Shown piece by piece: positions 3,526-40,431 of a DNA stretch of 64,000 bases (position 1 is the first letter of the stretch; the number at the start of each line of letters is the position of its first letter). Under the pieces are notes generated by a model, which was not told where the DNA came from, searched no databases, and saw only the letters and a program-made list of their open reading frames with translations. The position numbers and the translations under genes were made by a program. Origin of the DNA: Arenicellales bacterium (GTDB taxonomy: Bacteria; Pseudomonadota; Gammaproteobacteria; Arenicellales; JAJDZL01); the NCBI GenBank assembly GCA_963664525.1, contig OY761535.1, positions 3,129,242 through 3,193,241 on the forward strand. Direction: 5' to 3'.

Positions 3526-3538
3526 TGTTCGATCAAAA

Positions 3539-4549: not shown

Positions 4550-4656
4550 CGATTCCAGTGTTTTATCAAGTTCTAGACTGAAACGACCCTAACCGACAAT
4601 TGATCGTTGACAGGACAATAGCTCATGAATTTGGAATGAAAACCCAGTCCAAGCAG

Positions 4657-5340
4657 TTACTCATAAAGTTTCGCATACCGGTGACAGGATACCAAATGAT
4701 CGTTTACCAATCCTGCAGCCTGTAGGAAAGAATAGCAAATGGTTGTGCCAACAAAGGAAAATCCACGCTGCTTTAAGTCCTTGCTGATGCTGTCCGACAA
4801 AGCGGTATTGCTGGGCACTTGGCCTTGGGAGTTCCATGCGTTTTGAACAGGTCTTCCGTCTACAAACCCCCAGAAATAGCGATCAAGCGTCATCCCTGCT
4901 TCGCGCATCTCCAAAACCGCTTGGGCGTTCTTAATGAATGCGTTGATCTTCAAACGATTTCGCACGATCCCAGGATCGGTAACTAGAGCGGATCTCTTTT
5001 GGTCTCCATAGCGGGCGATTAAGTCAGGATTAAAGCCGTCAAAAACCTTGATGTAATGTGGTCTTTTGCGCAAGATCGTGAGCCAACTCAAGCCTGCCTG
5101 AGCTCCTTCCAGACACAGCATTTCAAAAAGCTTTATATTGTCGTGCTCCGGTACTGCCCACTCTCGGTCGTGATATTCACAAATAAGCGGATCTTCACCG
5201 CACCACCAGCATCGGGTCAAACCATCCAAAACAAACAAACTCCAAGACAATTGAGGTTGATTAACGAGATTCAAACAACTGAAATCGCTTACTGATAGTG
5301 TACGCGTTTTGGCTAATCGTTGGAATCGAATTCTTGCCAT
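4657..5340 (-). CDS. tag: DNA-3-methyladenine glycosylase I
   Basis: RCWWCGEDPLICEYHDREWAVPEHD..LCLEGAQAGLSWLTILRKR..FVGTTICYSFLQAAGLVNDHLVSCHRY tracks E. coli Tag along its whole length. The ORF carries about 45 extra N-terminal codons, so the true start may be internal. Confidence 0.9.
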   Translation of the reverse strand: MARIRFQRLAKTRTLSVSDFSCLNLVNQPQLSWSLFVLDGLTRCWWCGEDPLICEYHDREWAVPEHDNIKLFEMLCLEGAQAGLSWLTILRKRPHYIKVFDGFNPDLIARYGDQKRSALVTDPGIVRNRLKINAFIKNAQAVLEMREAGMTLDRYFWGFVDGRPVQNAWNSQGQVPSNTALSDSISKDLKQRGFSFVGTTICYSFLQAAGLVNDHLVSCHRYAKLYE

Positions 5341-5740: not shown

Positions 5741-7027
5741 ATGACCGACCAATATACGATCGCTTTTTTCCCGGAAGGAGCATTTGGACCCGCGCTTAAC
5801 TCCGTTGGTATCGCACAAGCTTGTACGGAACTGGGACACCGTTGTGTCTTTTTGACCGATCCTGGATTTTCCGGTGTATTTTCCGGTTATGGATTTGAAG
5901 AGCGAATCGTTAGGTTGTCGGAAGAAATGCCACCCGAAGAAATGGCTAAATATTGGTCAAATTTTATTGATGGTCATATTCCGAATTTCAACCTGACACC
6001 ATATCAACAGATCGGGAACTACGTCAAGGAGTGTTGGGAAGCCATTGTTGACACTGCCAAGTGGGCAGAAAAGGATCTACCAACTGTGCTTGATGATCTT
6101 AAGCCTGATCTGATCTGTATTGATAACGTCATCCTGTTTCCTGCAGCGAAGCGTTTCGGTGTGCCTTGGATTCGTATCATTTCCTGTAGCGAAAATGAGA
6201 TAGAAGACCCGATGATCCCACCACACTTGTCCGGCTGCGGTGAAAATGATATTGAGTGTTTCGAAGCCTACCGAAACCGATTTAACGAAGTCGTCAAACC
6301 GGTCCATGAAGATTTCAACGAATTTCTAATTTCGTTTGGCGAATCTCCATATCCTTTGGGTCTGTTTTTTGAACCCTCTCCCTATATGAATCTTCTGCTT
6401 TACCCTGAGCCTTTGCAATACAAACGGCAACACTCGCTGGACCCTGATAAATTTCAGTATCTTGAAGGTTGTGTTCGAAGCGACGAGCACTACGAGGTGC
6501 CCGACTTTGAAAGAAACAACGAGGCACCACTGATTTACCTCAGTTTCGGATCACTGGGTTCTGGAGATACCGATTTGCTCAAACGAATGATTGATGTTCT
6601 CGGCAAACTGGAGTATCGAGTACTGGTCAATATCGGCGATTACGGCGATGCCTACGATTCGCTCCCGGACAATGTTCATGTGGCATCCTGGTATCCGCAG
6701 CCATCTGTCATTGAACAGTGTGATGCGGTGATCCATCATGGTGGCAACAACAGTTTTACCGAGTGCTTGTATTTTGGAAAACCTGCCCTGATCATGCCCT
6801 ATGTCTGGGACGGCCACGATAATTCCACGCGCGTGCAAGAAACCGGGCATGGCTTGAAAATGCACCGTTCTAACTGGACGGACGAGCAATTGGCCGAGGC
6901 TATCGAAACCCTGTTAAATGACAAGGATATGCACGATCGGCTCCAATCAACCAGCGCACACATGAAAAAGGCAAACGGACAGCAAAAAGCTGCCCAAATA
7001 ATTGATCAGCTATTGCGTGCGAAATAG
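5741..7027 (+). CDS. UDP-glycosyltransferase, GT1 (MGT/UGT-like) family
   Basis: C-terminal nucleotide-sugar signature: WYPQPSVIEQCDAVIHHGGNNSFTECLYFGKPALIMPYVWDGHDN. The start is set at ATG 5741 (MTDQYTIAFFPEGAFGP); the ORF track begins at TTG 5723. Confidence 0.8.
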   Translation: MTDQYTIAFFPEGAFGPALNSVGIAQACTELGHRCVFLTDPGFSGVFSGYGFEERIVRLSEEMPPEEMAKYWSNFIDGHIPNFNLTPYQQIGNYVKECWEAIVDTAKWAEKDLPTVLDDLKPDLICIDNVILFPAAKRFGVPWIRIISCSENEIEDPMIPPHLSGCGENDIECFEAYRNRFNEVVKPVHEDFNEFLISFGESPYPLGLFFEPSPYMNLLLYPEPLQYKRQHSLDPDKFQYLEGCVRSDEHYEVPDFERNNEAPLIYLSFGSLGSGDTDLLKRMIDVLGKLEYRVLVNIGDYGDAYDSLPDNVHVASWYPQPSVIEQCDAVIHHGGNNSFTECLYFGKPALIMPYVWDGHDNSTRVQETGHGLKMHRSNWTDEQLAEAIETLLNDKDMHDRLQSTSAHMKKANGQQKAAQIIDQLLRAK

Positions 7028-7078
7028 TTTGCCGGTGGCGACAACGGTGTTATTCGACGCCGCTGAAGTCAAATTGAT

Positions 7079-7399
7079 TCAGACTTTGACGTAGACCTGA
7101 TCGTCAACGACTCTCACTGCGTAGGTCTGTAAGTCATCTTCTGCGGGATCTTCAACGACTTTTCCGGTCGTAACACTAAATTCCGCGAGATGTAAGGGGC
7201 AGACGATGCGATCTTCCTCGATATAGCCATCAGAAAGGCAGGCATATTCGTGTGTACAAACATTACTGATTGCATAAATTTCGCTATCCATCATAACCAA
7301 TGCTATTTCTTCAGCACCGATGTCAACCGGGAAAGGGACCCGGTCTTCCAAATCTGATATCGAAGCAACTGCATGATAGTTTTCCAAACTCTCGTTCAT
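7079..7399 (-). CDS. Rieske [2Fe-2S] ferredoxin
   Basis: 106 aa with the CTHE..(17)..CPLH Rieske ligand pattern (CxH...CxxH). Confidence 0.85.
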   Translation of the reverse strand: MNESLENYHAVASISDLEDRVPFPVDIGAEEIALVMMDSEIYAISNVCTHEYACLSDGYIEEDRIVCPLHLAEFSVTTGKVVEDPAEDDLQTYAVRVVDDQVYVKV

Positions 7400-7830
7400 T
7401 TTTTATCGAGGCTCCATTGAATTGGGAACAATTAATGTCGTCGTTTGCAGTGTTTCGCCTCTAAACGGGCGGGTAGCTGCCACAAAGCAAATCATTATAG
7501 TGAGTTGAATTTATCCTGTAGTTTCGAAATCAAAACGCAATTGTTTCTTCATAGGAATAATTCAGTCCTCTTTGCTTTTGATCAGGCAGTGGAAAACTTT
7601 TGCTAAACCCTGTGTCTGAAATTAGACTGATGGGACGCCGTGGTTTTTGGGCTGAGCGATCAGTGGAAAAAAGTACGATATGGAGTCAATGTAAAATGCC
7701 CGCAAAACCAAGCTACAAAATTTCGATCCAAGTTTTTCTTAAATTTCCTGTTTTGCGATAGCATCTGACACAAAACCCTCTGTACCGACTTTATTCAGCT
7801 TGCAAGTATGGCACAACAGCGTTGAACCCG

Positions 7831-9927
7831 ATGATGCGGACGCACAATCCTGAAATAAGACTCGGTGCCGATATTGGCGGTACGTTCACTGACATTGCTC
7901 TGGCCATTGATGGTCAAATTCAGTCAATCAAAGTGCTGACGGATCACAATGCTCTAGAGGCTGCAGTCGTCGACGGAATCTTGAAAGTTACTTCTCTTGC
8001 GGCCATCGCCCCGCAGGAGATTGGCCAAATCATTCACGGTACGACGCTGGCGACCAACGCCTTAATAGAGCGGCGCGGTGCAAAAACTGCTTTGATTACC
8101 ACCGATGGCTTTCGGGATGTAATCGAGATGCGAACCGAAAGCCGATTTGACCAATATGACCTTAATCTTCAACTGAACCCGGCGCTGATTCCTCGCCAGC
8201 ACCGATACACGGTCAAAGGACGAATGGATGCCCACGGTAAAGAGTTGCAAGCACTCGATGAACCTGCAGTTGAGCATCTTGCAACGATAATTTCTACCCA
8301 AGAATTCGAGTCTGTTGCCATTGGATTGATTCATTCCTATGCGAATCCCACCCACGAATTACGGGTTCGTGAAATACTCGCTTCCAGGTTGCCAAATGTA
8401 TCGATATCGATCAGCGCAGAAATATCGCCACAAATGCGGGAATACCCGCGATTTTGCACAGTCTGTGCGAATGCCTACATACGTCCGAAAATTGAGCGCT
8501 ATCTGACGCAATTGCAAACGAAGCTTAATGCTCAAGGTGTAACGTGCCCTGTATACATGATTCATTCAGCGGGTGGCTTGATATCAGTTGACACCGCGAA
8601 AGATTTTCCAGTGCGTTTGGTTGAATCAGGCCCAGCGGGAGGCGCCATGTTTGCAGCAGACATGGCGGCGAAATTTGGACTGGATAAGGTCGTTTCATTT
8701 GACATGGGCGGAACGACCGCGAAGATATGCCTAATCGAAGACAGCCAGCCACGCACCAGTCGGGAATTTGAGGTGGCACGCAGCCAACGGTTTTGCAAAG
8801 GCTCTGGAATGCCTTTGTCAATCCCGGTGATTGATATGATCGAGATCGGTGCAGGTGGTGGTTCAATTGCTTGGATCGACTCGATGAAACGAATACAGAT
8901 CGGACCTCAGTCTGCCGGGTCTGACCCGGGTCCTGCATGCTACCAGCGAGGTGGACAGCAACCAACCGTGACCGATGCTGATCTTATTCTGGGCAAAATT
9001 GATCCGGACCGCTTCGCCGAAGGAACCATACAGTTGTCCGATTCAGCTGCAACTTTGGCAATCAGTGAAAGTTTGGGCAAAGCGCTTTCGTCTGACGTGA
9101 CGACAGCCGCTTTTGGTATTTGTGAAGTCGTGGATGAAAACATGGCCAATGCCGCGCGTGTTCATGCGGTAGAAAATGGCAGTGATATCTCAGACCACGT
9201 TATGATTGCTTTTGGCGGTGCCGCCCCGCTGCACGCGGCCAGAATCTGCGAAAAACTCAATATTGACAGTTGCCTGATACCGCGTGGAGCGGGCGTCGGT
9301 TCTGCAATTGGATTTCTAATTGCTCCATTCAGTTATGAAGCTGTCGAGTCCCGGGTAATGAGTCTGAATAAGTTTCAGGTCGAAACGGTGAACCAGAGGT
9401 TGGCGGATTTGATTGAAAAAGCTGAAAATTTCGTTCGCGCCGGGACTCAGGCAAAGGTAAGCCTTGAGGTTACCGCATTTATGCGATACCAGGGACAGGG
9501 TTGGGAAATTCCGGTTCCAATCACAATACACAAATTGACCTTGGATGATGTGCCAAGGCTCAAAGCACATTTCGAACAGTGTTATGAAGAATTCTTTGGT
9601 CGGAAAATCGACATCCTGGACGATCTGGATATTGAAGTTGTTTCCTGGTCTGTCAAGGTTTCAGAAGAAAAAAGTAAACCGTCGTCGGTGACAATGACTA
9701 AAGTCGGAAACAAGATGCATCCATTGGAATCTCGAACGGTATTTGATCCAGCGTCAGGGCAAATGAAAAAAAATGGTATCGTAGACCGAATGGATTTGGT
9801 GGTTGGCGAACGGATCATCGGTCCGGCGATTATCGTGGAGCAACAGACATCGACGGTTGTCACTTCAAGGTTCGACGCGGTTTTACAATCCGACGGATCA
9901 ATCTTGCTGATGAGAAAATCAGGATAA
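7831..9927 (+). CDS. Hydantoinase/oxoprolinase family protein, A (HyuA-like) subunit
   Basis: N-terminal ATPase fold motif RLGADIGGTFTDIAL, a second phosphate motif FDMGGTTAKICLIE, and about 700 aa in length. Its stop abuts the B-subunit start. The ORF opens at TTG 7822. Confidence 0.88.
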   Translation: MMRTHNPEIRLGADIGGTFTDIALAIDGQIQSIKVLTDHNALEAAVVDGILKVTSLAAIAPQEIGQIIHGTTLATNALIERRGAKTALITTDGFRDVIEMRTESRFDQYDLNLQLNPALIPRQHRYTVKGRMDAHGKELQALDEPAVEHLATIISTQEFESVAIGLIHSYANPTHELRVREILASRLPNVSISISAEISPQMREYPRFCTVCANAYIRPKIERYLTQLQTKLNAQGVTCPVYMIHSAGGLISVDTAKDFPVRLVESGPAGGAMFAADMAAKFGLDKVVSFDMGGTTAKICLIEDSQPRTSREFEVARSQRFCKGSGMPLSIPVIDMIEIGAGGGSIAWIDSMKRIQIGPQSAGSDPGPACYQRGGQQPTVTDADLILGKIDPDRFAEGTIQLSDSAATLAISESLGKALSSDVTTAAFGICEVVDENMANAARVHAVENGSDISDHVMIAFGGAAPLHAARICEKLNIDSCLIPRGAGVGSAIGFLIAPFSYEAVESRVMSLNKFQVETVNQRLADLIEKAENFVRAGTQAKVSLEVTAFMRYQGQGWEIPVPITIHKLTLDDVPRLKAHFEQCYEEFFGRKIDILDDLDIEVVSWSVKVSEEKSKPSSVTMTKVGNKMHPLESRTVFDPASGQMKKNGIVDRMDLVVGERIIGPAIIVEQQTSTVVTSRFDAVLQSDGSILLMRKSG

Positions 9928-11553
9928 ATGGTGAACAGCAGTGTAGAAATTCAAATGCAGGTCATGTGGAACCGGCTCATTTCGGTAGTTGAAGAACAAG
10001 CCATGACCTTGCTTCGTACCGCCTTTTCCACTTCTGTTCGCGAGGCTGGCGATCTTTCAGCGGGTGTGTATACCCCTGACGGGCGTATGCTGGCTCAAGC
10101 GATTACGGGTACACCCGGACATGTGAATACGATGTCAGAATCGGTTTTGCATTTTCTCAACGAGATTGAGAAAAACGAAATGTTCGAAGGCGACTGTTAC
10201 CTCACAAATGACCCCTGGAAAGGGACTGGACACCTGCACGACATTACGATGGTTGCCCCCACTTTCAAGGATGGCAAAATCGTGGCATTTTTCGCTTGCA
10301 CTGCACACGTTGTCGATATCGGCGGTCGGGGCTTTGGTGCCGACAGTCTATCGGTGTATGAAGAGGGACTGTTGATCCCAATTTTGAAATTTTCCGACCA
10401 AGGGCAAGTCAATCGTGATTTGATCAAGATTGTGCGAAACGCTGTGCGTGAGCCAGATAAAGTGATTGGTGATCTTTATTCGCTGGCTGCATGTAACGAA
10501 GTTGGACATCGTCGTTTGCTGGAAATGATGCGTGATGCTGGTTTAGACAGTCTGGATGCGCTGGGTGAATTTATTTTTTCCCGTTCACGTCGTGCAACCC
10601 AGGAACGAATATCAGCGTTGCTGCCAACTGGCAGCTGGCGAAACTCACTCGTTGTGGATGGCTATGATGAACCGATCAAGCTGGCTGTGAAGATTTCCCA
10701 TTCAGATGGGAAAGTGAATGTCGATTTCACAGGTACAGACCCGATCAGTCGCTTTGGCATAAACTGTCCGGTGAATTACTCCAAAGCATACGCCTGCTAT
10801 GCAATTAAGTGTGTTGTTGCGCCTGAAATACCAAATAATTTTGCATCTTTGGAACTGTTTGAAATTTACTCACCTGTCAACATACTCAATGCGAAACATC
10901 CAGCACCGGTGGCTTTACGACACGTTATGGGCCACATGATTCCTGATTTGCTCTTTGGTGCGCTGGCGAAAGCCTTGCCAGGTCAGATTCAGGCAGAAGG
11001 GGCCTCGGCACTTTGGAATGTTCATTTTTCAGTCCGTCCGGTCGATGGCAATGAAGGACAAAGTGCAGAAGTATTGATGTTCAATTCCGGTGGTGGCGGT
11101 GCCAGGCCGCAATTGGATGGAATGTCCGCGACAGCCTTTCCGTCCGGGGTTCAAACGATGCCGATCGAAGCTACAGAACATACCGGACCGATTGTAGTAT
11201 GGCGAAAGGAATTGCGCCCGGATAGCGGCGGTCTCGGAAGAACTCGCGGCGGTCTCGGACAGATTATCGAGATTGCACCAGCTAAGGGCTATGAGTTTGA
11301 TTTTTCTGCCATGTTTGATCGGGTGCACCACGCTGCCGCGGGTCGGGATGGAGGTGGCGCTGGCGCTGCCGGTGTTGTGCAGCTTGATGATGGCACCCGC
11401 CTTCGGCAAAAGGGCTGGCAACATGTCCCTGCAGGTAGTAGATTGATTCTCAAAGCGCCGGGTGGCGGTGGATTTGGACCGCCGCAAGAACGTTGTCCAA
11501 AAGCTGTCGAAAACGATTTGATTGCCGGTTACGTAAGCAAATCAGAAAACTAG
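9928..11553 (+). CDS. Hydantoinase B/oxoprolinase family protein (HyuB-like subunit)
   Basis: 541 aa: VMWNRLISVVEEQAMTLLRTAFSTSVREAGDLSAGVY..NDPW.GTGHLHD. This is the typical Hydantoinase_B N-terminus. The ATG directly follows the hyuA stop. Confidence 0.88.
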   Translation: MVNSSVEIQMQVMWNRLISVVEEQAMTLLRTAFSTSVREAGDLSAGVYTPDGRMLAQAITGTPGHVNTMSESVLHFLNEIEKNEMFEGDCYLTNDPWKGTGHLHDITMVAPTFKDGKIVAFFACTAHVVDIGGRGFGADSLSVYEEGLLIPILKFSDQGQVNRDLIKIVRNAVREPDKVIGDLYSLAACNEVGHRRLLEMMRDAGLDSLDALGEFIFSRSRRATQERISALLPTGSWRNSLVVDGYDEPIKLAVKISHSDGKVNVDFTGTDPISRFGINCPVNYSKAYACYAIKCVVAPEIPNNFASLELFEIYSPVNILNAKHPAPVALRHVMGHMIPDLLFGALAKALPGQIQAEGASALWNVHFSVRPVDGNEGQSAEVLMFNSGGGGARPQLDGMSATAFPSGVQTMPIEATEHTGPIVVWRKELRPDSGGLGRTRGGLGQIIEIAPAKGYEFDFSAMFDRVHHAAAGRDGGGAGAAGVVQLDDGTRLRQKGWQHVPAGSRLILKAPGGGGFGPPQERCPKAVENDLIAGYVSKSEN

Positions 11554-11606
11554 TGTCGAATATAGCATGTAGTGTTGGATAGGGCCGTCAAATTCTGATG
11601 TATGCA

Positions 11607-12542
11607 TCAAGTATTAGCAGTCTCCATTTGCCAATTCTTGATCCAAAATCGCCCGTTGCTACTCACAACAGACTTCGCTGCCGATCCCATTTCAAAGGCA
11701 ATTGTAGAAAGGTGATAGAGAGTCATCACCGCATCCTGTAGAATCTGATCGTTTTCCAGATCAATGACTTCAAGTTGCTGTGCCTTTGCTTCGTTGCGAT
11801 CGATTCGTCTACCGTGGCTTCCGTGTTGGTTGCCACCAAAGTGCCTCGCCACTTCTCTAGAAAGGGTTGCCGAGTCATTTTTTTCGGAAAACATGTGCTG
11901 CTCTAACCAACCTCGTATAAGCGTTTCACCATAGTCAATTGATTTTCTAGCTTCTTGAAGTAATGCGGGTCCAAAGGATCGTAATACCGGCACCCAAGCG
12001 TGAGCTAGGAGAGGATTCTCGGAAATTTGTTTTTTTGCTTCTTCGAATTGTTCGACAATGGAGTGCGCCGAAAAAGATCGAGCATTGATAATGAGTTGTG
12101 GGTCTGTTGGCCCCAACTGACTCTGACGACCCATCACGATTCTATCGCATCCCAGCGCAATCATCGTCCCTGCTGACATTGCATAGGTGGGAATCAGAAC
12201 GTCAATTGAGGAAAATTTACTTCGTAGATAATCTAGAATCGTCTGTGCAGACTCTGCCATACCGCCTGGTGTATGCAGAATCAAAAGGAGATTTTTACAG
12301 AAGTCATGACCATGAACTCCGGCCATAATGCCGTTAATGTCTTCCATGTTAATTGATGTGTAGAGCCCTGGGATATGAGGCTTTTGCAAAAAACTAGAAG
12401 CATAATACAAAACGTTGCGATCGTAGTGCTGTGCGATATGGTTTATCGATATCCGCATTTTCTCCGCGATATGCGTACCTCGTTGGCCCGGATCAACACG
12501 ATTTATTTCATCTTGAAGATCAGACCAACTTGGCATTTGCAT
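11607..12542 (-). CDS. SDH-family Clp-fold serine proteinase (ClpP/SppA-like)
   Basis: LLILHTPGGMAESAQTILDYLRSKF..LIPTYAMSAGTMIALGCDRIVMGRQSQLGPTDPQ is a ClpP/crotonase-fold serine-protease core with the nucleophile in AMSAG. The start is set at ATG 12542 (MQMPSWSDL..); the ORF track begins at TTG 12614. Confidence 0.7.
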   Translation of the reverse strand: MQMPSWSDLQDEINRVDPGQRGTHIAEKMRISINHIAQHYDRNVLYYASSFLQKPHIPGLYTSINMEDINGIMAGVHGHDFCKNLLLILHTPGGMAESAQTILDYLRSKFSSIDVLIPTYAMSAGTMIALGCDRIVMGRQSQLGPTDPQLIINARSFSAHSIVEQFEEAKKQISENPLLAHAWVPVLRSFGPALLQEARKSIDYGETLIRGWLEQHMFSEKNDSATLSREVARHFGGNQHGSHGRRIDRNEAKAQQLEVIDLENDQILQDAVMTLYHLSTIAFEMGSAAKSVVSSNGRFWIKNWQMETANT

Positions 12543-22959: not shown

Positions 22960-23352
22960 ATGAAATTTAATATTCTGGTCAATGAAGGCCCCTACACGCA
23001 TCAGGCATCGGATACTGCCTATCATTTTGCCAAGGCGGCAATTGATTGTGGGCACGAAGTGATTCGGGTGTTTTTCTATCACGATGGCGTCAACAATGCC
23101 ACGCGATTTGCTTCACCACCCGTTGACGATCGCGATGTTATCGTGCGCTGGACGCAATTGGCTGAAAGTTACGACATTGATCTGGCAGTCTGTGTTGCGG
23201 CTTCGTTGCGCCGAGGGGTACTGGGTGAAGATTCGGCGCACCAATTAGGCATTGCTGAGGTCAATTTGGACGATCACTTCAGGGTAGCTGGATTCGGGCA
23301 CTTTATTGAAGGGGCGATCGTCGCGGATCGGACCTTGGTATTTGGCGACTGA
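22960..23352 (+). CDS. dsrE: Sulfurtransferase DsrE (TusD homologue)
   Basis: 130 aa with MKFNILVNEGPY..; the conserved active-site Cys sits exactly at position 78 (LAVC78VAAS). It is the first gene of an E-F-H-C series. Confidence 0.85.
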   Translation: MKFNILVNEGPYTHQASDTAYHFAKAAIDCGHEVIRVFFYHDGVNNATRFASPPVDDRDVIVRWTQLAESYDIDLAVCVAASLRRGVLGEDSAHQLGIAEVNLDDHFRVAGFGHFIEGAIVADRTLVFGD

Positions 23353-23375
23353 AGACGATCGCGAAACGACAGTGC

Positions 23376-23759
23376 ATGACTAAACGTTTGATGTTCGTTA
23401 ATCGCAGGGCCCCTTATGGCACTGTCTATGGAATGGAAGCGCTTGATGCAACGCTTGCTGCATCCGCGTTTGGACAAGATCTGAGCATGGCGTTTGTGGA
23501 CGATGGGGTGTACCAGCTCAAACGGAATCAGAATCCGTCAGTACTGGGGATCAAACACTACACAAGGACATTTGCTGCGCTGGATGATTTTGGAGTTGAT
23601 CATATATTTGTAGAACAAGAATCGATGATGGAAAGAGGATTGAAACAGGAAGACTTGATGGAAATATTCCGTGAAGATGGCAGCGATGCGTTGACAATTG
23701 TTTCGTCTAGCGAACTTTCTGAAATCATGGAAACGCAGGACGTAATCTTTCAATTTTAG
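23376..23759 (+). CDS. dsrF: Sulfurtransferase DsrF (TusC homologue)
   Basis: 127 aa of the DsrE/F fold (LMFVNRRAPYGTVYGMEALDA), in position between dsrE and dsrH. Confidence 0.8.
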   Translation: MTKRLMFVNRRAPYGTVYGMEALDATLAASAFGQDLSMAFVDDGVYQLKRNQNPSVLGIKHYTRTFAALDDFGVDHIFVEQESMMERGLKQEDLMEIFREDGSDALTIVSSSELSEIMETQDVIFQF

Positions 23760-23767
23760 ATACGGCA

Positions 23768-24070
23768 ATGTTGCACACGATCAACAAATCTCCGACTGAA
23801 CGCCCCAGTTTGCTCAGCTGCCTGAGACTGGCGAAAGCAGGAAGTGACATTTTGCTGATTGAAGACGCGGTCTATGCAGCGCTTAGCGGGACGAAATTTG
23901 CCGAAATTATTGAAAATTCGCTAAACCACCATCAGTTTTTTGTGTTAGAAGCAGACTTGGATTGTCGCGGTTTTGGTCAATCTGAACTGATTGACGGCAT
24001 CACAATGGTTGATTACACGGGTTTCGTATCGCTGGCGGTGAAAAATGATAAGGTTCAGGCTTGGCTTTAG
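23768..24070 (+). CDS. dsrH: Sulfurtransferase DsrH (TusB homologue)
   Basis: 100 aa: MLHTINKSP....LSCLRLA..GSDILLIEDAVYAA. This is the typical DsrH/TusB N-terminus with a conserved Cys. Confidence 0.8.
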   Translation: MLHTINKSPTERPSLLSCLRLAKAGSDILLIEDAVYAALSGTKFAEIIENSLNHHQFFVLEADLDCRGFGQSELIDGITMVDYTGFVSLAVKNDKVQAWL

Positions 24071-24081
24071 GTGCGACAATA

Positions 24082-24414
24082 ATGACACTTGAGTTTGACG
24101 GAAAAGTTTATGAAACGGATACCGAAGGGTTTCTCACGAATCCAGAGGAGTGGTCGGCGCAATTGGCAGAAAAGATGGCGGCCGACGACGGATTTCAATT
24201 GGGCCCTGATCATTGGGAAGCGATCAATATACTGAGGGACTACTATGCGCAGTTCGCCATCGCTCCTCCCATTCGAATTCTTATCCGACACATGGGCAAG
24301 CGTCTGGGCAAAGAAAAAGCGAACAGCCCATACCTTTACGAACTGTTTCCGTTTGGGCCCGCCAAGCAGGCCTGCCGATACGCGGGGTTGCCCAAGCCGA
24401 CTGGCTGCATCTAA
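24082..24414 (+). CDS. dsrC: DsrC (two-cysteine C-terminal arm; TusE/DsrC family)
   Basis: The C-terminus PAKQACRYAGLPKPTGCI carries both the penultimate Cys and the Cys ten residues upstream. That pattern distinguishes DsrC from single-Cys TusE. Start set at ATG 24082 (MTLEFDGKVYETDTEGF). Confidence 0.85.
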   Translation: MTLEFDGKVYETDTEGFLTNPEEWSAQLAEKMAADDGFQLGPDHWEAINILRDYYAQFAIAPPIRILIRHMGKRLGKEKANSPYLYELFPFGPAKQACRYAGLPKPTGCI

Positions 24415-25000
24415 TCGGCTTCCAACCAGGCTGAAATAGGGCGCTGGACCACAACAGGATACAGTTTCAATGTCGAACGTTTTTGCGATTCTGTTTTATC
24501 TGGCCCTGTTGGTTCTCACTTGTGGAATTGTGTGGAAAGTCATCAGCTATGCGAGGACACCGATGCACAGTGTATTGCCAATCTCACCAGCACCTCGATC
24601 ATATTCTGGAGTGATTTTGAGAATTGCGCGCGAAGTTATTTTCTTTGAGAGCTTGTTTAGAGCAAGCAAATGGACGTGGCTTTTTGGCTGGGTCTTTCAC
24701 TATGCGCTCGCAGTCGTGTTGCTTCGTCATCTGTTTTTTGTTATCGACCCAATCCAACCATGGGTGATTGCTTTTTTTGTTCCAGGTGATATCGCAGCAT
24801 GGTTCATGGTGGCGTCATTGCTCGGGCTTTTGGCTCGACGAATTTTTGTGGAGCGGATTCGATATGTTTCGACGCCTTCTGATTACGCTATGCTGGGGCT
24901 GATATTGCTGATTGTTGCGTCGGGTCTGGCATTACGCTACAGCACACCAGTGGATATTATGGCGACTCGGGATTTCATGCTGGGATTAATTGGACTGTCT

Positions 25001-27016
25001 CGAGGGATTTGCGCTGTCAAAAAATCTAGACGAGGCAATGGTTTAGAGAAGGGTCGAAAAAACTTTCCCCCAACAAACGGCTGATTAGAGGGCTTTGAGT
25101 CGATTCAGCATTGATTTTGGCGAATTTCACCCCAACGTCAATTACCCGCCTGCTGGTGCAACGAGGTTTCCCCAAAACCTCTACTATACAGTAATAATGT
25201 CTTTATTAACATATACATAGAGTTGACATTGGCGCCACCATGGTGTATCATTCATGAGCATAAACAACCACATCCATGACCCAATGGAAATCAAACACCA
25301 TGGCGACAAAAATAGAAACCAGCCTTTTTTCCTGGAATAATCCGCAACAACTGCCAAGACTGCAAACACTGGCCCGTGTGCTGGAGATTTTACCGTATCA
25401 AGCGTTGGTTGAGGCCCTGTGTGAAAAACGCGGCCGCGGCCGAAACGATTTCCCGGTCGAAGCGATGTTTCGTCTGGTGATTGCCGGTGTGGTGCTGCAA
25501 TATCCTTCTGCGGCAGCCTTGCTGCGCAACCTGGAAACCAACCTGAGTCTGGCCCAGATCTGTGGCTTCAACCCGTTGCCAAGACAGCAACAGTCCAAAA
25601 CGGTGGTGCATGAGTCGTCGCAAGGACCGGTGACGTTCGAGACCATTGACTACCCACAGCGCATCACGTTGCCGGATGACTGGGCCTTCAGTCGTTTCCT
25701 GACCAGTATGCTGGAGCTGTTGGCCCAGCGAGATTATCTCAAAGAGATGTTTGAGCAACTGCGCGAACAATTGCGGGTGGTGGTGCCCGATTTTGGATGC
25801 TACCTGGCCTACGACGGAAAAGCAATCCAGAGTCATTCCACCGGTCGGGTGAAGCACAAAAGCGGTTACAGTTCAGACCCGGATGCCACCTGGGGCAAAC
25901 ATGAGAGCAAAGGGGTTGACAAAAAGGGTCGTGCCTGGAGCAAAGTCAAAGAATGGTTTGGATTTCGCTTGCACGCCATTGTGGATTCAGTGAACGAGTT
26001 GCCGGTGGATTATCGTGTGACGACGGCGAGCGATGGTGAGGCGGTGGTGCTGTCACAGATGCTCAAAGAGATGGACGAAACCCATCCGCAGATTCTCGAA
26101 CGCACAGAGCAGTTAAGTGCCGATCGCGGGTTGGATGTCAAGGAGTTGTACCGGGCGCTGTTCGACGATTACCAGATCGAGCCGGTAATTGATAACCGTG
26201 ATCTTTGGCGTCAGGAAAAAGACGAGGGCAACTATGATCCACAAAAGCCGATCTTGAGAATGCTCAACGGTGGCAAGCGCATTGATAACATTGTCTATGC
26301 GGAAGATGGGACGCTCATGTGCCGGTGTCCGCACACTGACACGGAGCGCGAGATGTATTTTATGGGCTATGAGAAAGATCGGGGGACCTTAAAGTATCGC
26401 TGTCCTGCCAAAGCCGGTGGTTATCAGTGTGCTGGTACGCAACAGTGTCTGCGATACGGCCGCTCGAAGGCGCACCGGTATGGTCGCACGGTGCGAATCA
26501 AACTGGATCAGGCCAATCGCAGGATATTTACGCCGACACCGCGCAACACGTACAAATGGAAGCGCAGTTATGCGCGGCGCACGGCGGCTGAGCGGTTTTT
26601 CTCTCGCATCGCTCAGGGCTACAATTTTGATCACCACTATGTACGTGGACTGGTCAAGATGCAGGCCAAAGCGTCGCTGGCCATGGTGGTTGGACTGGCG
26701 ATGGCGATTTTGCACATTCAAGCCGGTCAGGCGAACAACATGCGCTCACTGATCCGACCGATTGCGTTGCTTGATACTGGCTAAGGGTCGCGTTGTATTG
26801 TGAATTGACTTATCGTAGCGTGGCTGCGAGGGCTGGGCGCGTCTTGATACCAGTAAAATTGACACAAATATGAACAAACCGCATTTCAGACAAAATATTC
26901 GACGCGATTGGCTTGGTCGACGGTCTGTGGAAGATGATTATTGCCCCGTCAGTGCCCTGGCGGGCCAACGAGTCGGCGTGGCCGGACGCGAAAATGGCTA
27001 CAACGCAAATCCCTCG
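25001..27016 (+). mobile_element. Insertion sequence (2,016 bp), IS4/IS5-superfamily (IS1182-like) with one DDE transposase gene
   Basis: IRL at 25001-25017, CGAGGGATTTGCGCTGT, matches the reverse complement of 27000-27016 at 16/17 positions. There is a 3-bp direct repeat, TCT, at 24998-25000 and 27017-27019. By eye the interior is GC-richer than the flanks. Confidence 0.88.
25276..26784 (+). CDS. DDE transposase (InsH-N/DUF772-type N-terminus, IS4/IS5 superfamily)
   Basis: 502 aa. The N-terminus RGRNDFPVEAMFRLVIAGVVLQ resembles the transposase DUF772 region. A Cys-rich insert (CRCPHTD..YRCPAKAGGYQCAGTQQC) is present. The C-terminal RRTAAERFFSRIAQGYNFDHHYVRGL motif is typical of IS5/IS1182-type enzymes. 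Confidence 0.85.
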   Translation: MTQWKSNTMATKIETSLFSWNNPQQLPRLQTLARVLEILPYQALVEALCEKRGRGRNDFPVEAMFRLVIAGVVLQYPSAAALLRNLETNLSLAQICGFNPLPRQQQSKTVVHESSQGPVTFETIDYPQRITLPDDWAFSRFLTSMLELLAQRDYLKEMFEQLREQLRVVVPDFGCYLAYDGKAIQSHSTGRVKHKSGYSSDPDATWGKHESKGVDKKGRAWSKVKEWFGFRLHAIVDSVNELPVDYRVTTASDGEAVVLSQMLKEMDETHPQILERTEQLSADRGLDVKELYRALFDDYQIEPVIDNRDLWRQEKDEGNYDPQKPILRMLNGGKRIDNIVYAEDGTLMCRCPHTDTEREMYFMGYEKDRGTLKYRCPAKAGGYQCAGTQQCLRYGRSKAHRYGRTVRIKLDQANRRIFTPTPRNTYKWKRSYARRTAAERFFSRIAQGYNFDHHYVRGLVKMQAKASLAMVVGLAMAILHIQAGQANNMRSLIRPIALLDTG

Positions 27017-27209
27017 TCTCCGACAATACTTCCAAGTCACGCAATGCTATATTTACATCTGGCAAGTGTGTCAATTTTGGCATTGATTTTTCCATTTAGC
27101 AAACTGATTCATTTTCCTGGATACTTTTTCAGTCCTGCGCACAATCAGAAATATTCAGCCTCGAAAATCAAGATCGGTGGCCGATAGACCGCGTCGGTGC
27201 GTTCTTTAC

Positions 27210-27716
27210 ATGACTATGATTAGACACTGTACACCAGACGATTTCGATCGCATACTTGCTATCATCAACAAGGCTGCACAAGCCTATAGGGGCATTATTC
27301 CAAACGATCGGTGGAAAGAGCCATACATGCCCGCTGAGGAACTCGCGGACGAAATTACTGCTGGAGTCACTTTCGACGGCTACGAAATGACCGAAGTGGG
27401 GCTGGTAGGTGTGATGGGTGTTCAGCTTGTCAAGGATGTAGCATTGATCCGCCATGCTTATGTTGCTCCTGAAAATCAGCGTTCAGGAATTGGATCTACT
27501 CTGCTGAACGAGCAATGTGCAAATCTGGATTGTCCGATCCTGGTCGGTACCTGGGCCGCTGCCGATTGGGCAATTGCCTTTTACCAGCGCCATGGTTTCA
27601 AGCAGGTATCGATGACGGAGAAGTCAACATTGTTGAGACGGTACTGGACCATACCAGAACGCCAGATCGAGACTTCTGTTGTGCTTGCTAATGAACGATG
27701 GCGCCTCTCACCATGA
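27210..27716 (+). CDS. GNAT-family N-acetyltransferase
   Basis: Acetyl-CoA motif A, PENQRSGIGSTLL, plus AIAFYQRHGF. ATG 27210 was chosen so that the gene starts after the dsrM stop. Confidence 0.8.
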   Translation: MTMIRHCTPDDFDRILAIINKAAQAYRGIIPNDRWKEPYMPAEELADEITAGVTFDGYEMTEVGLVGVMGVQLVKDVALIRHAYVAPENQRSGIGSTLLNEQCANLDCPILVGTWAAADWAIAFYQRHGFKQVSMTEKSTLLRRYWTIPERQIETSVVLANERWRLSP

Positions 27717-28384
27717 GCGAATTCTCCTTGAATAAAGATACGATACAGGCGCAAGAGGTGTCGGCAGCTACGATTGAGAACTATAACCGTATAGCGCTTG
27801 CTTTTTGTAAAGGCACGGAGAATCATGATGTCAGTCAGAACATCGCTGCCTTACTTGACGCGATCAAGGATGACGGTCCACACGTCATTCTCGATTTTGG
27901 CTGCGGGCCCGGTCGGGATCTTTGCCAATTTAAAGCACTCGGCCACGAGGTGGTCGGTCTGGATGGTTCAAGCGAGTTTGTCGAAATGGCCCGAGCTAAA
28001 TCGGGATGTGAGGTGCTCCATCAAGATTTTCTCAACCTAGATTTACCATTCGCTCGCTTCGATGGGATATTCGCGAACGCTTCTCTTTTTCACATTCCGA
28101 TCAGTCAACTCGACCGAGTCCTGGGCAACCTCGCTGCGACGCTCAAATCTGAGGGCGTATTGTTAAGCTCAAACCCGAGAGGCAACAACGAGCAAGGTTG
28201 GGTCGATGGGCGATACGGTTGTTTCCATGATTTGGAAACATGGCGTGCCCACGTTCGCGCCGCGGGTTTTCGCGAATTGCATCACTACTATCGACCGACT
28301 GGGCGACCGCGAGTGCAACAACCATGGCTTGTCACAGTCTGGCGTAAAAATACTGAAGTCAGTTCGATTAGCATCTCGGCGTAG
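27713..28384 (+). CDS. Class I SAM-dependent methyltransferase
   Basis: Motif I VILDFGCGPGRD, then an acidic residue at GLDGS. ATG 27713 overlaps the GNAT stop in an ATGA arrangement; ATG 27698 is an alternative start. Confidence 0.8.
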   Translation: MSEFSLNKDTIQAQEVSAATIENYNRIALAFCKGTENHDVSQNIAALLDAIKDDGPHVILDFGCGPGRDLCQFKALGHEVVGLDGSSEFVEMARAKSGCEVLHQDFLNLDLPFARFDGIFANASLFHIPISQLDRVLGNLAATLKSEGVLLSSNPRGNNEQGWVDGRYGCFHDLETWRAHVRAAGFRELHHYYRPTGRPRVQQPWLVTVWRKNTEVSSISISA

Positions 28385-28549
28385 GCATTCTCGACCATAA
28401 GTTCCCATGGGTTTAATACCCTGGAATTTCATTGATGCAGATGAACATAGCCTTTCATCTAGAAATTTATACACGTATGGTAAAACCGATCCGGGTATAA
28501 AATCAATAAATAACAATAGGATGACGTCAGTTCAACGGTAAATCTCTGG

Positions 28550-30010
28550 ATGAAGAACCAGCGAAAAACAGGTCGCTTGCGAAACATGGAAAATCTTAAA
28601 AAATCAGTGGTTAAACCGCATTTTCGCTCAGATACCAGCGAATCGGGTCAACTGGCTGATAACTGGCAGGAAATTGCGATCGAAAAGCTCGGTGAACAAG
28701 TTCGATCAAACCGGGCACTTAAGGTTTTCTTGGACAGTTGTGTGAACTGTGGTGCTTGCACTGACAAGTGCCATTATTTTTTAGGTGACGGTGACCCGTT
28801 GAATATGCCAGTTGCCCGCCAAGACTTGATTAGAGGAGTTTATCGCCGGCACTTCACGGTGGCAGGAAAATATTTTCCGAAATTGGTTGGAGCAAGAGAA
28901 TTGACTGAAGAATTACTTGAGGACTGGGGAAAGTATTACTATCAGTGCTCACAGTGTCGCCGTTGCTCCGTGTATTGTCCCTTCGGTATTGACACAGCAG
29001 AAATTACCATGGCTGGTCGCTCAATTCTCGACGCCATCGGGATGAAGCAGCAATACATTCATTCGGTGCTTGACAATGTTGACAGGGCCGGAAACAACCT
29101 GGGCATGATAGGGCCCGCCATCAAAGATACGTTGAATGGTTTGGAGGAAGACGTTTTCGAGGAAACTGGGGTGCATGTGAAGTTCCCGCTTGACGAAGTT
29201 GGTGCTGATGTATTGCTGCTGGTGCCGTCGGCAGATTTATTTGCTGAACCTCATGTTGACGGTTTAATTGGCTGTGCCAAAATTTTTCACCAGCAGGGTA
29301 TCCATTGGACGCTGTCTACCTCAGCGTCGGAAGCGGCCAATTTTGCACTGTTCGTGGGGGACACTGAAAAAATGCAGGCAATGGCTGAACGAGTCAAAGA
29401 CGTGGCGTTAGAGCTTGGTGTGAGAAAGGTTGTTGTTGGTGAGTGCGGCCACGCGTGGCGAGTTGCAAGCAGTTATTGGCCGCAGTTGCTGGCATCGGCT
29501 ACTTCGAACCAATCTGCCGGATTCGAAGTATTGCATATTTGCGAGTTGACTTATGACTTACTTTGCCAACAATCACTGCAGCTTGACAAGTCCGTGCACC
29601 GAGACAAGGTCATCACGTATCACGATTCGTGCAATGTGGCACGCGGTTCACGTATGGGCGAACATCCGCAGGATGTGTACGACATTCCGCGTGCATTGCT
29701 GAAGGCGGCTTGCGAAAACTTCGTTGACATGGCTCCAGAATCGATTCGCGAGCGTACCTATTGCTGCGGCGGAGGCGGCGGTCTTTTAACCGATGAGTTG
29801 ATGGAGATTCGGGTCAGTGGTGCTTTGCCCCGTGTCAGTGCATTGGAGGAGGTTATCACCAATCAGGGCGTCACACATATGGCAGCAATCTGCGCGATCT
29901 GCAAGAGTCAGTTCAGTTCCGTTTTACCTCGCTACGGATTGGACATGAGAATGATCGTCAGTTTACATCAGATTGTTGGAGATGCTGTGGTGTTGAGTGC
30001 GGACAAGTGA
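28550..30010 (+). CDS. dsrK: DsrK (HdrD-like Fe-S / CCG-domain catalytic subunit)
   Basis: Two ferredoxin-type clusters (CVNCGACTDKC, CSQCRRCSVYCP) and CCG-domain cysteines (HDSCN.., YCCGGGGG). Confidence 0.85.
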   Translation: MKNQRKTGRLRNMENLKKSVVKPHFRSDTSESGQLADNWQEIAIEKLGEQVRSNRALKVFLDSCVNCGACTDKCHYFLGDGDPLNMPVARQDLIRGVYRRHFTVAGKYFPKLVGARELTEELLEDWGKYYYQCSQCRRCSVYCPFGIDTAEITMAGRSILDAIGMKQQYIHSVLDNVDRAGNNLGMIGPAIKDTLNGLEEDVFEETGVHVKFPLDEVGADVLLLVPSADLFAEPHVDGLIGCAKIFHQQGIHWTLSTSASEAANFALFVGDTEKMQAMAERVKDVALELGVRKVVVGECGHAWRVASSYWPQLLASATSNQSAGFEVLHICELTYDLLCQQSLQLDKSVHRDKVITYHDSCNVARGSRMGEHPQDVYDIPRALLKAACENFVDMAPESIRERTYCCGGGGGLLTDELMEIRVSGALPRVSALEEVITNQGVTHMAAICAICKSQFSSVLPRYGLDMRMIVSLHQIVGDAVVLSADK

Positions 30011-30545
30011 TCCAGTTGCTGCCCAATATCTTTTGCATCGTACGGAATAGTTGATCATGGAAAATCAATCCGATTTCTTGGAGGGTTCAGATCAATTTTG
30101 CTTCGAGATTATCGGCCTAGGCTTTGGAAGTAGGGTCTTCCCTAATTTTCGTGGGTAGCGGAATTATTGAGTGAGTTCAATGTTGTTTTCGGGCGCGGTT
30201 CATTGCGTGTGTTATTCTTCGAATTAACTCCTCTGCAACACGCCGAACATGCGCACGCGCATTTGAGCCCGTTCTTGTCCTTGGAGAATTTGTTAGTTCT
30301 CCATTGGCCCCGACCGGCCAGGTCAACTTAGCGCTATTGCTGTTGGTACGATTCGGTTTGCTTCTGTGATATCGGTGTTATCCTCATCTACTTACTATCT
30401 GGCTTCTCGAAAAAGTGCTTGGTAACTACAGAATATTATTGCTAATATCCCAATTGCTTTAGTATTTGTGTTGGATGAGTAATTCTTGGTTAGCGTTAGA
30501 CCTCAGCCTACCTTGGGGCAATTATTACCAAAATATTCGCTTAAA

Positions 30546-30605
30546 CGTATATATTGATATTATACGGAGAATAGTATATTTAGTTTTTATACGCTAGATC
30601 GTATA
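30546..30605 (+). promoter_or_regulatory. Candidate HipB operator pair in the hipBA promoter region
   Basis: Two inverted repeats built from the same hexamer: CGTATA-N9-TATACG (30546-30566) and TATACG-N6-CGTATA (30588-30605). They end 17 nt before the hipB ATG. Function is inferred by analogy with HipB autoregulation. Confidence 0.45.
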
Positions 30606-30621
30606 TAGAGAGGCGGTAAGG

Positions 30622-30867
30622 ATGAGAAATATCATACGTAGTAATAAAGATCTTGGTGAATCAATCCGCCGTGCACGCAAGAATAAAGGTTTACGGCAGG
30701 TTGATGTCGCTCGAAAAGCCTCAGTACGCCAGGCACTGGTATCTGACCTTGAGAACGGTATGACTACGGCAAGGTACGACACCGTGATCAAGGTGCTGGC
30801 CGCTCTGGATATGGACTTGTCTATCGTCCCGCGCCGCAAAGCCGGATTCGATCCAACGGAGTATTAA
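30622..30867 (+). CDS. hipB: HipB-type XRE-family antitoxin
   Basis: 81 aa with an HTH (IRRARKNKGLRQVDVARKASVRQALVSDLENG). Its stop abuts the hipA start. Confidence 0.85.
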   Translation: MRNIIRSNKDLGESIRRARKNKGLRQVDVARKASVRQALVSDLENGMTTARYDTVIKVLAALDMDLSIVPRRKAGFDPTEY

Positions 30868-32166
30868 GTGGGACGTAAACGCCACAGACGCATTCTTGAT
30901 GTGTATGTCGGCTCGAGTAAAGTTGGCATGTATTCCCGTGAGCCTAGCGGTGCTATATCGTTTCGTTATGATCCGGACTGGTTGTCATCCGATAAGGCAT
31001 TTCCTATTTCCGTGTCCATGCCGCTGACTGATCGTGTCTGGTCAGGGGAAAGTGCGGCCAACTACATTGACGGGTTGTTGCCAGATGATCGTACCGTAAG
31101 AGAAAAAATTGCTGCCCGTGAGCAGGCAGACAGTTCTGGAATATTTGATCTCCTTGCAGTTCTCGGACGTGATTGTGTAGGAGCACTGCGTTTTATCCCT
31201 GAGGGACTTGATCCTGGTGACCCAACGAATATGGAATATAGACCGGTAAGCGATGATGAAATTGCTGCTCGGATCGCTTCCCTCGCCATCACGCCACTCG
31301 GTGTCCATCTCGATGAAGATGATTTTCGTATCTCCATTGCAGGCATGCAAGAAAAAACGGCCTTTCTCCGGATCAACAATCAATGGCATTTACCACTTGG
31401 GCCTACACCCACCTCTCACATCTTCAAGCCTGCGATGAAAAAAGGCCCGGCAGGCGTCGATTTTTCTGATACTCCCTGGAATGAGTGGCTCTGTCTCGAA
31501 CTGTGCCGTGCCTTGGGTCTTGAGTCGACAAAGGCCGATGTGTTGGTATTCAATGATAAACCCGTAATCGCCATTGAGCGATTCGATCGGGTCTGGAGGG
31601 AAAGGGTACTATACCGGAAACCGCAGGAAGATATGTGTCAGGCCTTAGGGGTTCCACCAGTGCGGAAGTACCAAAGTGATGGTGGTCCGGGCATTGTCGA
31701 CGTACTGAAGTTCCTGAACGGTGCGATTGTCCCATATGAAGACCGCATGGCCTTTATGAAGACACAGGTCGTGTTCTGGTTGTTGGCAGCCATTGACGGC
31801 CATGCCAAAAACTTCTCAATATTTCTCTCACCAGATGGCTACCGACTCACGCCTCTATACGATGTGGTTTCAGCCGCTCCCTGGCCGGAATTTCCGGATC
31901 AGAAGATTAAGCTTGCAATGGCCTTGGGGAGCAAAAACTATTATCGCTTACATCAAATTCAACTCCGACACTTCTATCAGACAGGTCAAAAAGCAGGGTT
32001 ACGTGAGCAGGATATGGATCTTATCTTTTCTAGCCTGCTCGCGAAGATGGATGATGCAATAGCACAAACGGCTGCTTTGGCTTCCAATGCCGGAGTGCCA
32101 GCATCAACAACAGAATTAATTTTGGCTAGTGTGAGTAAACGCGCCAAGATAATAGGAAAGGAGTGA
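30868..32166 (+). CDS. hipA: HipA-family serine/threonine kinase toxin
   Basis: 432 aa. HipA N-terminal coupling region (LDVYVGSSKVGMYSREPSGAISFRYDPDWL, LLPD), SIAGMQEK and catalytic DGHAKNFS motifs. GTG start directly after the hipB TAA. Confidence 0.9.
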   Translation: MGRKRHRRILDVYVGSSKVGMYSREPSGAISFRYDPDWLSSDKAFPISVSMPLTDRVWSGESAANYIDGLLPDDRTVREKIAAREQADSSGIFDLLAVLGRDCVGALRFIPEGLDPGDPTNMEYRPVSDDEIAARIASLAITPLGVHLDEDDFRISIAGMQEKTAFLRINNQWHLPLGPTPTSHIFKPAMKKGPAGVDFSDTPWNEWLCLELCRALGLESTKADVLVFNDKPVIAIERFDRVWRERVLYRKPQEDMCQALGVPPVRKYQSDGGPGIVDVLKFLNGAIVPYEDRMAFMKTQVVFWLLAAIDGHAKNFSIFLSPDGYRLTPLYDVVSAAPWPEFPDQKIKLAMALGSKNYYRLHQIQLRHFYQTGQKAGLREQDMDLIFSSLLAKMDDAIAQTAALASNAGVPASTTELILASVSKRAKIIGKE

Positions 32167-32279
32167 TACACTTCAATGGATTACAAGGGCGGGAGAAATG
32201 CTGCAGCTTGTATAAATTGAAACCGTCGAGGCTGACTCGTTTTCGTTGACCGATGCACTTTCACACTTTTGCCCGCTCA

Positions 32280-40235: not shown

Positions 40236-40431
40236 CCAGATATTCAGATGCCGCCCGCACGTGCCGTACCAGCCCCCATAGCCTTGAACCGCCATGTTCA
40301 AGTGGGCAACTGGTGAGACAGCTTCAGGTGCTTTGCAACACGGCAAGCTCACAACAGCTGGCTCAGTTTGTTCCCTGGTAAAGTCTTTAGGTTCGAAGGA
40401 AATTAGACCGGTTCAAACACTACAGGCGGCG
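40236..40431 (-). ncRNA. ssrS: 6S RNA (ssrS); ends approximate
   Basis: The gap between zapA and the cyclo-ligase gene has no plausible ORF. On the minus strand it reads ..CACUUGAACAUGGCGGUUCAAGGCUAUGG..GCGGGCGGCAUCUGAAUAUCUGGCG. This matches the E. coli 6S 3' half (..CCUUGAACCAAGGGUUCAAGGGUUACAGCCUGCGGCGGCAUCUCGG..). A 5' CGCC / 3' GGCG closing stem is possible. Synteny with zapA-ssrS-ygfA supports the call. Confidence 0.65.

Follow-up and report, generated by a model that had tools for sequence, protein, structure and literature searches.

The closest described counterparts of the gene considered here are the DsrM proteins of the DsrMK(JOP) systems of sulfur oxidizers such as Allochromatium vinosum and Thioalkalivibrio. 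These are NarI-like membrane proteins of about 230–260 residues with four conserved histidines, whose gene lies directly after dsrEFH–dsrC and before dsrK. Two haems have been described in the DsrM helix bundle, bound via highly conserved histidines (PMC10504309). As a NarI-type dihaem cytochrome b, DsrM serves as the membrane anchor of DsrK and connects the thiol/disulfide chemistry of DsrC to the quinone pool. The second relevant type of system is provided by the IS1182 and IS5 families of insertion sequences (IS), mobile elements of about 2 kb with short inverted repeats, a small fixed target duplication, several copies per genome and a single transposase open reading frame (ORF) with DDE_Tnp_1, DUF772 and DDE_Tnp_1_6 domains. 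Counterparts of both are encountered together in the 64-kb stretch of Arenicellales DNA analysed here (contig OY761535.1; this whole stretch is called the window below), where a DsrM gene differs from those of the described sulfur oxidizers in being interrupted by an IS and in belonging to a stand-alone dsrEFHCMK block. The explanation proposed, to which a probability of about 0.9 can be given, is that the dsrM gene of the chromosome received a 2014-bp DDE-type IS, whose transposition doubled the 5-bp target GTCTC, that DsrM was thereby inactivated, and that the event is young.

From its ATG at 24470, the dsrM ORF reads on the forward strand to ..MLGLIGLS, with TCT at 24998–25000 as codon 177. 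It then continues with 27 codons devoid of DsrM likeness up to a stop at 25082–25084, for a total of 204 residues, and this truncated ORF is identical to a database protein, P0003. A preliminary description of this locus had already placed the break at codon 177, followed by unrelated sequence and a stop, and its coordinates were reproduced by reading the sequence and the ORF list. It had also reported that 25001–25017 matches the reverse complement of 27000–27016 at 16 of 17 positions and that TCT recurs at 27017–27019. Both observations hold, but not the 3-bp target duplication deduced from them: the combination of a 3-bp TCT repeat with a 17-bp inverted repeat was replaced by a 5-bp GTCTC duplication after comparison with ten copies from the same family.

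These related copies (L081–L090) have GAGG...CCTC ends and point to 5-bp duplications, a different one being read in each of nine copies besides that of the window. In two of them, L081 and L082, whose transposases are, respectively, 76 and 70% identical to that of the window, the termini are the same as in the window IS, and the DNA identity of 70–71% begins at the second base of the element; the L081 junctions read ATTTA/GAGGC...CCCTC/ATTTA. The other eight (L083–L090) are copies of a more distant relative with a transposase (P0157) 48% identical to the window one. All of them run from GAGGCATGTGCGCTGT to ACAGCGCACATTCCTC, each with its own 5-bp repeat, for example GTGCT, GGGTG, TACGA or AGTCT. 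Because termini and 5-bp duplications are shared in this way, the IS is assigned to 25002–27015 on the forward strand, between the GTCTC copies at 24997–25001 and 27016–27020, so that the window reads GTCTC/GAGGG...CCCTC/GTCTC. Its 16-bp termini, GAGGGATTTGCGCTGT and ACAACGCAAATCCCTC, at 25002–25017 and 27000–27015, match at 15 of 16 positions, and its GC content is 52%, compared with 48% for the window. A C/G pair that closes the 5-bp repeat on its inner sides merely chances to make the inverted repeat one base longer. With each of these parses, the deletion amounts to 2019 bp, i.e., 673 codons, and leads to the identical repaired gene. With up to two mismatches allowed, the motif CGAGGGATTTGCGYTGT occurs at two sites only in the window, which are both ends of the IS (chance expectation 0.02), and no other copy of the IS was found in the window.

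The interrupted gene is thus divided into a 5′ part at 24470–25001, with codons 1–177, the first base of codon 178, transmembrane helices 1–4, His77 and His87, and a 3′ part at 27021–27187, from the remainder of codon 178 to the stop at 27185–27187, with helix 5, His190 and His208. Once the IS and one copy of the repeat are removed, the empty site reads ...GGACTGTCTCCGACAATAC... As previously claimed, deletion of 25001–27019 in silico restores the frame and yields an ORF of 232 codons. Its size is the expected one, since residues 1–232 align with homologues and the failure of end-to-end alignment envisaged in the preliminary description did not occur. With 232-residue homologues from Arenicellales genomes, this alignment is free of gaps (75% identity). 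In the protein database, three homologues, all of 232 residues (P0001, P0002 and P0004), match over 100% of the query length with 73–75% identity, and the third-ranked match is the truncated P0003 itself. No DsrM from the protein and genome collections is more than 75% identical to the repaired protein, and the DsrM of Thioalkalivibrio sp. HK1 reaches 51%. Across the break, the sequences of the relatives are ..SPTELP.., ..SPTVLP.. or ..SPVALP.., to be compared with ..SPTILP.. in the repaired protein, with the S and P on either side of the break conserved. In an alignment of 117 homologues, 60 columns reach a conservation of 95% or more, and the repaired DsrM retains every one of them, 42 before the junction and 18 after it, with no gap, when the homologues themselves fall short by 0.6 of these columns on average. 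The Pfam profile Nitrate_red_gam (PF02665) is matched with 39.8 bits, for a cut-off of 22.9.

Insights into the consequences for the protein come from NarI. A search against solved structures aligned the repaired DsrM with the NarI chains in the PDB, including Escherichia coli NarI (1Q16 chain C), at an E-value of about 0.003, which makes this a distant relationship; the partner of DsrM is moreover the HdrD-like DsrK and not NarGH. The two proteins have in common PF02665, an FH..(9)..H arrangement in helix II and an LH..(17)..H arrangement in helix V, and His77, His87, His190 and His208 of the repaired DsrM align, respectively, with His56, His66, His187 and His205 of NarI. Hydropathy analysis delineates five hydrophobic segments (residues ~4–27, 71–93, 97–125, 138–158 and 185–207). 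The break, which comes after residue 177, thus falls within the loop that connects transmembrane helices 4 and 5. The product now encoded consists of 177 DsrM residues followed by 27 IS-derived ones, and lacks helix 5, His190 and His208. In NarGHI, the two b haems have a pair of histidine ligands each, with one residue from helix II and the other from helix V. The truncated DsrM should bind neither haem, because the helix V histidines, one per haem in NarI, are lost, and it would hence be inactive. A chimeric ORF of 105 residues (26870–27187) can also be recognized, whose ATG belongs to the right end of the IS and whose reading frame continues as that of the 3′ part of dsrM, including all of helix 5. 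The predicted IS promoter points towards it. No Shine–Dalgarno-like sequence was seen by eye before 26870, and this ORF is probably incidental and not expressed.

The inserted element carries one transposase gene (25300–26784, forward strand), for which the ATG at 25300 gives the family-typical length of 494 residues and an alternative start exists at 25276; the exact protein is present in the database as P0121. Upstream of it, at 25223–25251, lies a putative sigma-70-like promoter (TTGACA-17-TATCAT), predicted from an 11/12 match to the consensus only. The transposase matches the Pfam domains DDE_Tnp_1 (PF01609, 47.6 bits for a cut-off of 23), DUF772 (PF05598, 30.3 for 23.1) and DDE_Tnp_1_6 (PF13751, 28.9 for 25.1). 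It differs from the IS1182 and IS5 transposases in falling below all curated NCBIfam cut-offs: the top model, IS1182 (NF033551), gives 102.2 bits for a cut-off of 270 and covers the C-terminal half only, followed by the IS5 models NF033581 (39.4 for 140), NF033580 (37.4 for 110) and NF033579 (35.4 for 140). More than 100 homologues of about 494 residues are found in metagenomes, many of them on contigs of about 2 kb, and their public labels are limited to “transposase” or “hypothetical”, with no family name. A name was also sought through annotated plasmids, and this route was abandoned, the tblastn matches being weak and partial (26–41% identity, with no more than 59% of the protein covered) and again labelled “transposase” or “hypothetical”. 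On this sequence evidence, the element is best described as an unnamed DDE_Tnp_1 IS related to IS1182 and IS5, which stays under every named NCBIfam cut-off.

The window transposase looks intact. In an alignment with 116 homologues, it is identical at 121 of 132 highly conserved columns. The 11 deviating columns were considered as possible signs of decay and rejected as such, since members of its subclade (P0124–P0128) also depart from the consensus there. With its intact 494-residue transposase gene and its own predicted promoter, the IS is presumed autonomous. On the 3,458,003-bp contig that also encodes the truncated DsrM, there are three more transposase ORFs: P0122 (439 residues), which is 100% identical to the window transposase, P0123, a fragment of 142 residues, and P0129 (315 residues), which is 83% identical with many substitutions. 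The genome would accordingly be home to both young and decayed copies of the IS. One identical and two degraded ORFs on the source contig also point to repeated waves of IS activity. With a DDE transposase, terminal inverted repeats, a target duplication, ends that are kept in independent relatives and further transposase ORFs on the source contig, the element has the hallmarks expected of a genuine IS.

The recent age proposed in the preliminary description is supported indirectly. The insertion is considered recent because neither half of the gene shows decay, the duplication, the termini and the transposase are all intact, and a second copy in the genome would encode the identical transposase over 439 residues. 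The orthologous loci in the 80 relatives compared by tblastn of the window proteins are uninterrupted and none contains the transposase, but no conspecific empty site was encountered. In the metagenome collection, the 36-nt empty-site sequence gave zero matches, as did 27 nt of dsrM taken immediately to the left of the break. This second result means that the species is absent from that collection, so that nothing is said there about the allele.

The polarity on downstream genes that had also been put forward is plausible, also for dsrK. The dsr genes of A. vinosum form one transcript (PMC3368242). A simple scan found no promoter-like site between 27188 and 28549, and no terminator was predicted in the part of the IS that follows the stop codon of the transposase gene. 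The direct downstream neighbours are genes for a GNAT acetyltransferase and a methyltransferase, not dsrK, and the expression of all three would probably be disturbed. Since the IS is co-oriented with the dsr genes, with a strong promoter-like site and no predicted terminator, read-through could drive these downstream genes and might partly stand in for operon transcription.

The neighbouring dsr genes, all on the forward strand, are free of lesions, in agreement with the preliminary description. Upstream of dsrM are found dsrE (22960–23352, 130 residues; Pfam DsrE; NCBIfam TusD/DsrE 143.9 bits for a cut-off of 89), dsrF (23376–23759, 127 residues; NCBIfam TusC/DsrF 113.6 bits for 94) and dsrH (23768–24070, 100 residues; Pfam DsrH 93.6 bits), which are intact and align with their orthologues over residues 1–130, 1–127 and 1–100, respectively. 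They are followed by dsrC, listed as 24061–24414 with a true start probably at ATG 24082 (Pfam DsrC 138 bits). Its product is 77–89% identical to the orthologues in the 16 closest loci (L001–L016) and ends with ..CRYAGLPKPTGCI, in which both conserved cysteines are present, 11 residues apart; the roles of these two cysteines have been described (PMC3397948). Downstream, dsrK (28550–30010, 486 residues) is intact, with 534.7 bits for the NCBIfam DsrK cut-off of 400 and 80–82% identity to L001 and L002. Altogether, DsrE, F, H, C and K are essentially full length relative to the 16 closest loci, with identities of 63–89%.

These 16 loci, mostly from metagenome-assembled genomes (MAGs) labelled Arenicellales, share a common block consisting of an M48 peptidase gene followed by dsrE, F, H, C, M and K. 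The folKP genes are also found upstream in the closest loci, and rpiA comes after dsrK in L001 and L002. In this Arenicellales clade (window 22960–30010 and L001–L016), dsrEFHCMK appears as a stand-alone block between the M48 peptidase gene and rpiA, with no dsrAB upstream or dsrLJOP downstream, unlike the dsrABEFHCMKLJO order of Thioalkalivibrio sp. HK1 (L034). The dsrK gene is the next one after dsrM in 74 of the 77 related loci, and begins 2–4 bp past it in L001 and L002. In the window, the two genes are parted by a 1.36-kb cassette, located outside the IS, that encodes the GNAT acetyltransferase (27210–27716) and a class I S-adenosylmethionine methyltransferase (27698–28384), both identified by Pfam on the forward strand (27210–28384 together). 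This cassette is missing from each of the 80 related loci. An overlapping pair of the same genes is present in L091, among toxin–antitoxin and Abi genes, and in L092, with methyltransferases 75–77% identical. This pair had gone unmentioned in the preliminary description.

Other insertions were observed at this locus and in its relatives. A HipBA toxin–antitoxin module (hipB 30622–30867, hipA 30868–32166) lies between dsrK and rpiA, in window interval 30011–32279. In L001 and L002, rpiA is within a few bases of dsrK, which makes hipBA the third insertion at the window locus relative to them. Around both the GNAT–methyltransferase pair and hipBA, the search for border repeats returned chance-level short repeats only. 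In L011, an Arenicellales MAG, dsrF and dsrH are separated by a 2.2-kb insert (3020–5289) with the gene of a group II intron reverse transcriptase/maturase (NCBIfam 313 bits for a cut-off of 300), and about 270 extra bp are present at the same spot in L009 and L014. Foreign genes are also found between dsrM and dsrK in two MAGs of sulfur oxidizers: the L044 insert (6690–11890) contains an ORF of 1652 residues resembling, by eye, a helicase fused to an NPPY-motif methyltransferase, and the L063 insert (1935–3315) an ORF of 394 residues with no NCBIfam match. The dsrM–dsrK junction seems, from these loci, to tolerate insertions repeatedly.

A further parallel is the expansion of IS in host-associated or symbiotic bacteria, where, as here, a metabolic gene is disrupted by an IS of which both identical and degraded copies are present. 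The relatives of this bacterium are Arenicellales-labelled MAGs, and sponge-associated Arenicellales MAGs have been published and described as sulfur oxidizers with reverse-Dsr genes (PMC12625764, PMC12481749). The present case differs by its single IS copy in 64 kb, the other genes inspected looking intact, so that the window gives no evidence of genome-wide pseudogenization.

Several points weigh against a recent inactivation of dsrM by this IS. First, among the DsrM/NarI profiles compared with the repaired protein, the NCBIfam model cytob_DsrM (NF038037) is not reached, with 124.1 bits for an equivalog cut-off of 300. The DsrM of Thioalkalivibrio sp. HK1 likewise stays under this cut-off, with 150.3 bits, in a canonical cluster where dsrA, dsrB and dsrO are above theirs and dsrL-like and dsrJ-like genes lie downstream. 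Since such a canonical DsrM also fails, NF038037 appears to be tuned to the DsrM of sulfate reducers. Second, dsrAB was not found in the window, so that the pathway context of the gene in this genome is a presumed one. Third, neither a conspecific genome nor an empty-site allele was found and the nearest DsrM is only 75% identical, so that the recent age is deduced from the lack of decay. Lastly, the insertion may be carried by a sub-population only and have been captured in the consensus, and a second dsrM-like paralogue may exist elsewhere in the genome.

Among the other explanations, the one that survives best, although rather unlikely, is that the insertion is real but old or inconsequential. 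The dsrEFHCMK block would then already be dispensable or redundant, because of another DsrMK/Hdr-like module or another sulfur oxidation route, and would be gathering mobile DNA. Three insertions in 8 kb relative to L001 and L002 (the IS, the GNAT–methyltransferase pair and hipBA) fit this proposal, as do the older degraded copies of the IS in the genome (P0129, 83% identical, and P0123) and the fact that dsrL and dsrJOP, like dsrAB, were found neither in the window nor beside the cluster in the clade. However, apart from the insertion, the six dsr frames have their full length and no damage, the complete set of conserved columns is present in DsrM and DsrK exceeds its equivalog threshold. Intact transposase, ends and duplication, together with a twin that is 100% identical, would also be unexpected after a long neutral decay.

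The chances of an assembly or consensus artefact look slim. Such an artefact could be a mis-join at a repeat, or an allele of a minority of cells with an intact dominant allele. The source is apparently a metagenome-derived contig of 3.46 Mb, the close relatives are all MAGs, and the IS is multi-copy in the genome, a type of repeat at which assemblers err. Against this, the sequences on either side belong to a single gene, whose halves are in the correct order, orientation and frame, and the junctions coincide to the base with the conserved termini of the family. A 5-bp direct repeat of the family length brackets the IS, when a mis-join makes no target duplication, and a multi-megabase contig would imply reads spanning 2 kb. 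A mis-assembly is thus unlikely.

It is hardly credible that the split is tolerated or exploited, either through reassembly of the N-terminal four-helix fragment with a C-terminal one translated from 26870–27187 or through precise excision as a reversible switch, even though an in-frame ATG opens this ORF with all of helix 5, the predicted promoter is directed at it and the IS plus duplication amount to a multiple of three (2019 bp), since that ORF lacks a visible Shine–Dalgarno-like sequence and starts with 49 foreign residues, no feature here suggests selection for excision, precise excision of DDE elements is rare and we know of no precedent for split NarI-type cytochromes.

Elsewhere in the window, far from the dsr locus, a 6S RNA was detected at 40248–40431 on the reverse strand (Rfam RF00013, 61.3 bits for a gathering score of 46.4), which is the sole Rfam match in the window. 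Two adjacent ORFs on the reverse strand, 2650–3525 (291 residues) and 3539–4549 (336 residues), have no Pfam match at E ≤ 1e-5.

The transposition into dsrM is an ordinary case of a metabolic gene knocked out by an IS, here an unnamed one that belongs to a known kind, and is not surprising; understanding of IS elements and of the Dsr pathway is left unchanged. A more ambitious proposal, speculative and in our view improbable, would be that the bacterium has only just begun to lose the DsrMK electron outlet of its Dsr-dependent sulfur oxidation, or switches it off in part of the population. The dsrEFHCMK block would then be an insertion hot spot, as judged from the IS, the GNAT–methyltransferase pair and hipBA and, in relatives, from the group II intron and a restriction–modification-like gene. 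The IS would represent a standing presence/absence variation tuning the sulfur metabolism of a symbiont population, and its family would be widespread and unnamed, with GAGG termini and 5-bp duplications. In practical terms, mobile-element catalogues gain clear ends (GAGG..TGCGCTGT) and a duplication length of 5 bp for a common, publicly unnamed group of transposases of about 494 residues. For annotation, P0003 corresponds to a DsrM that is truncated and continues with IS sequence, and a pseudogene flag is merited here. As regards the metabolism of this bacterium, scoring dsrM as present would overstate the capacity of the genome for Dsr-dependent sulfur oxidation.

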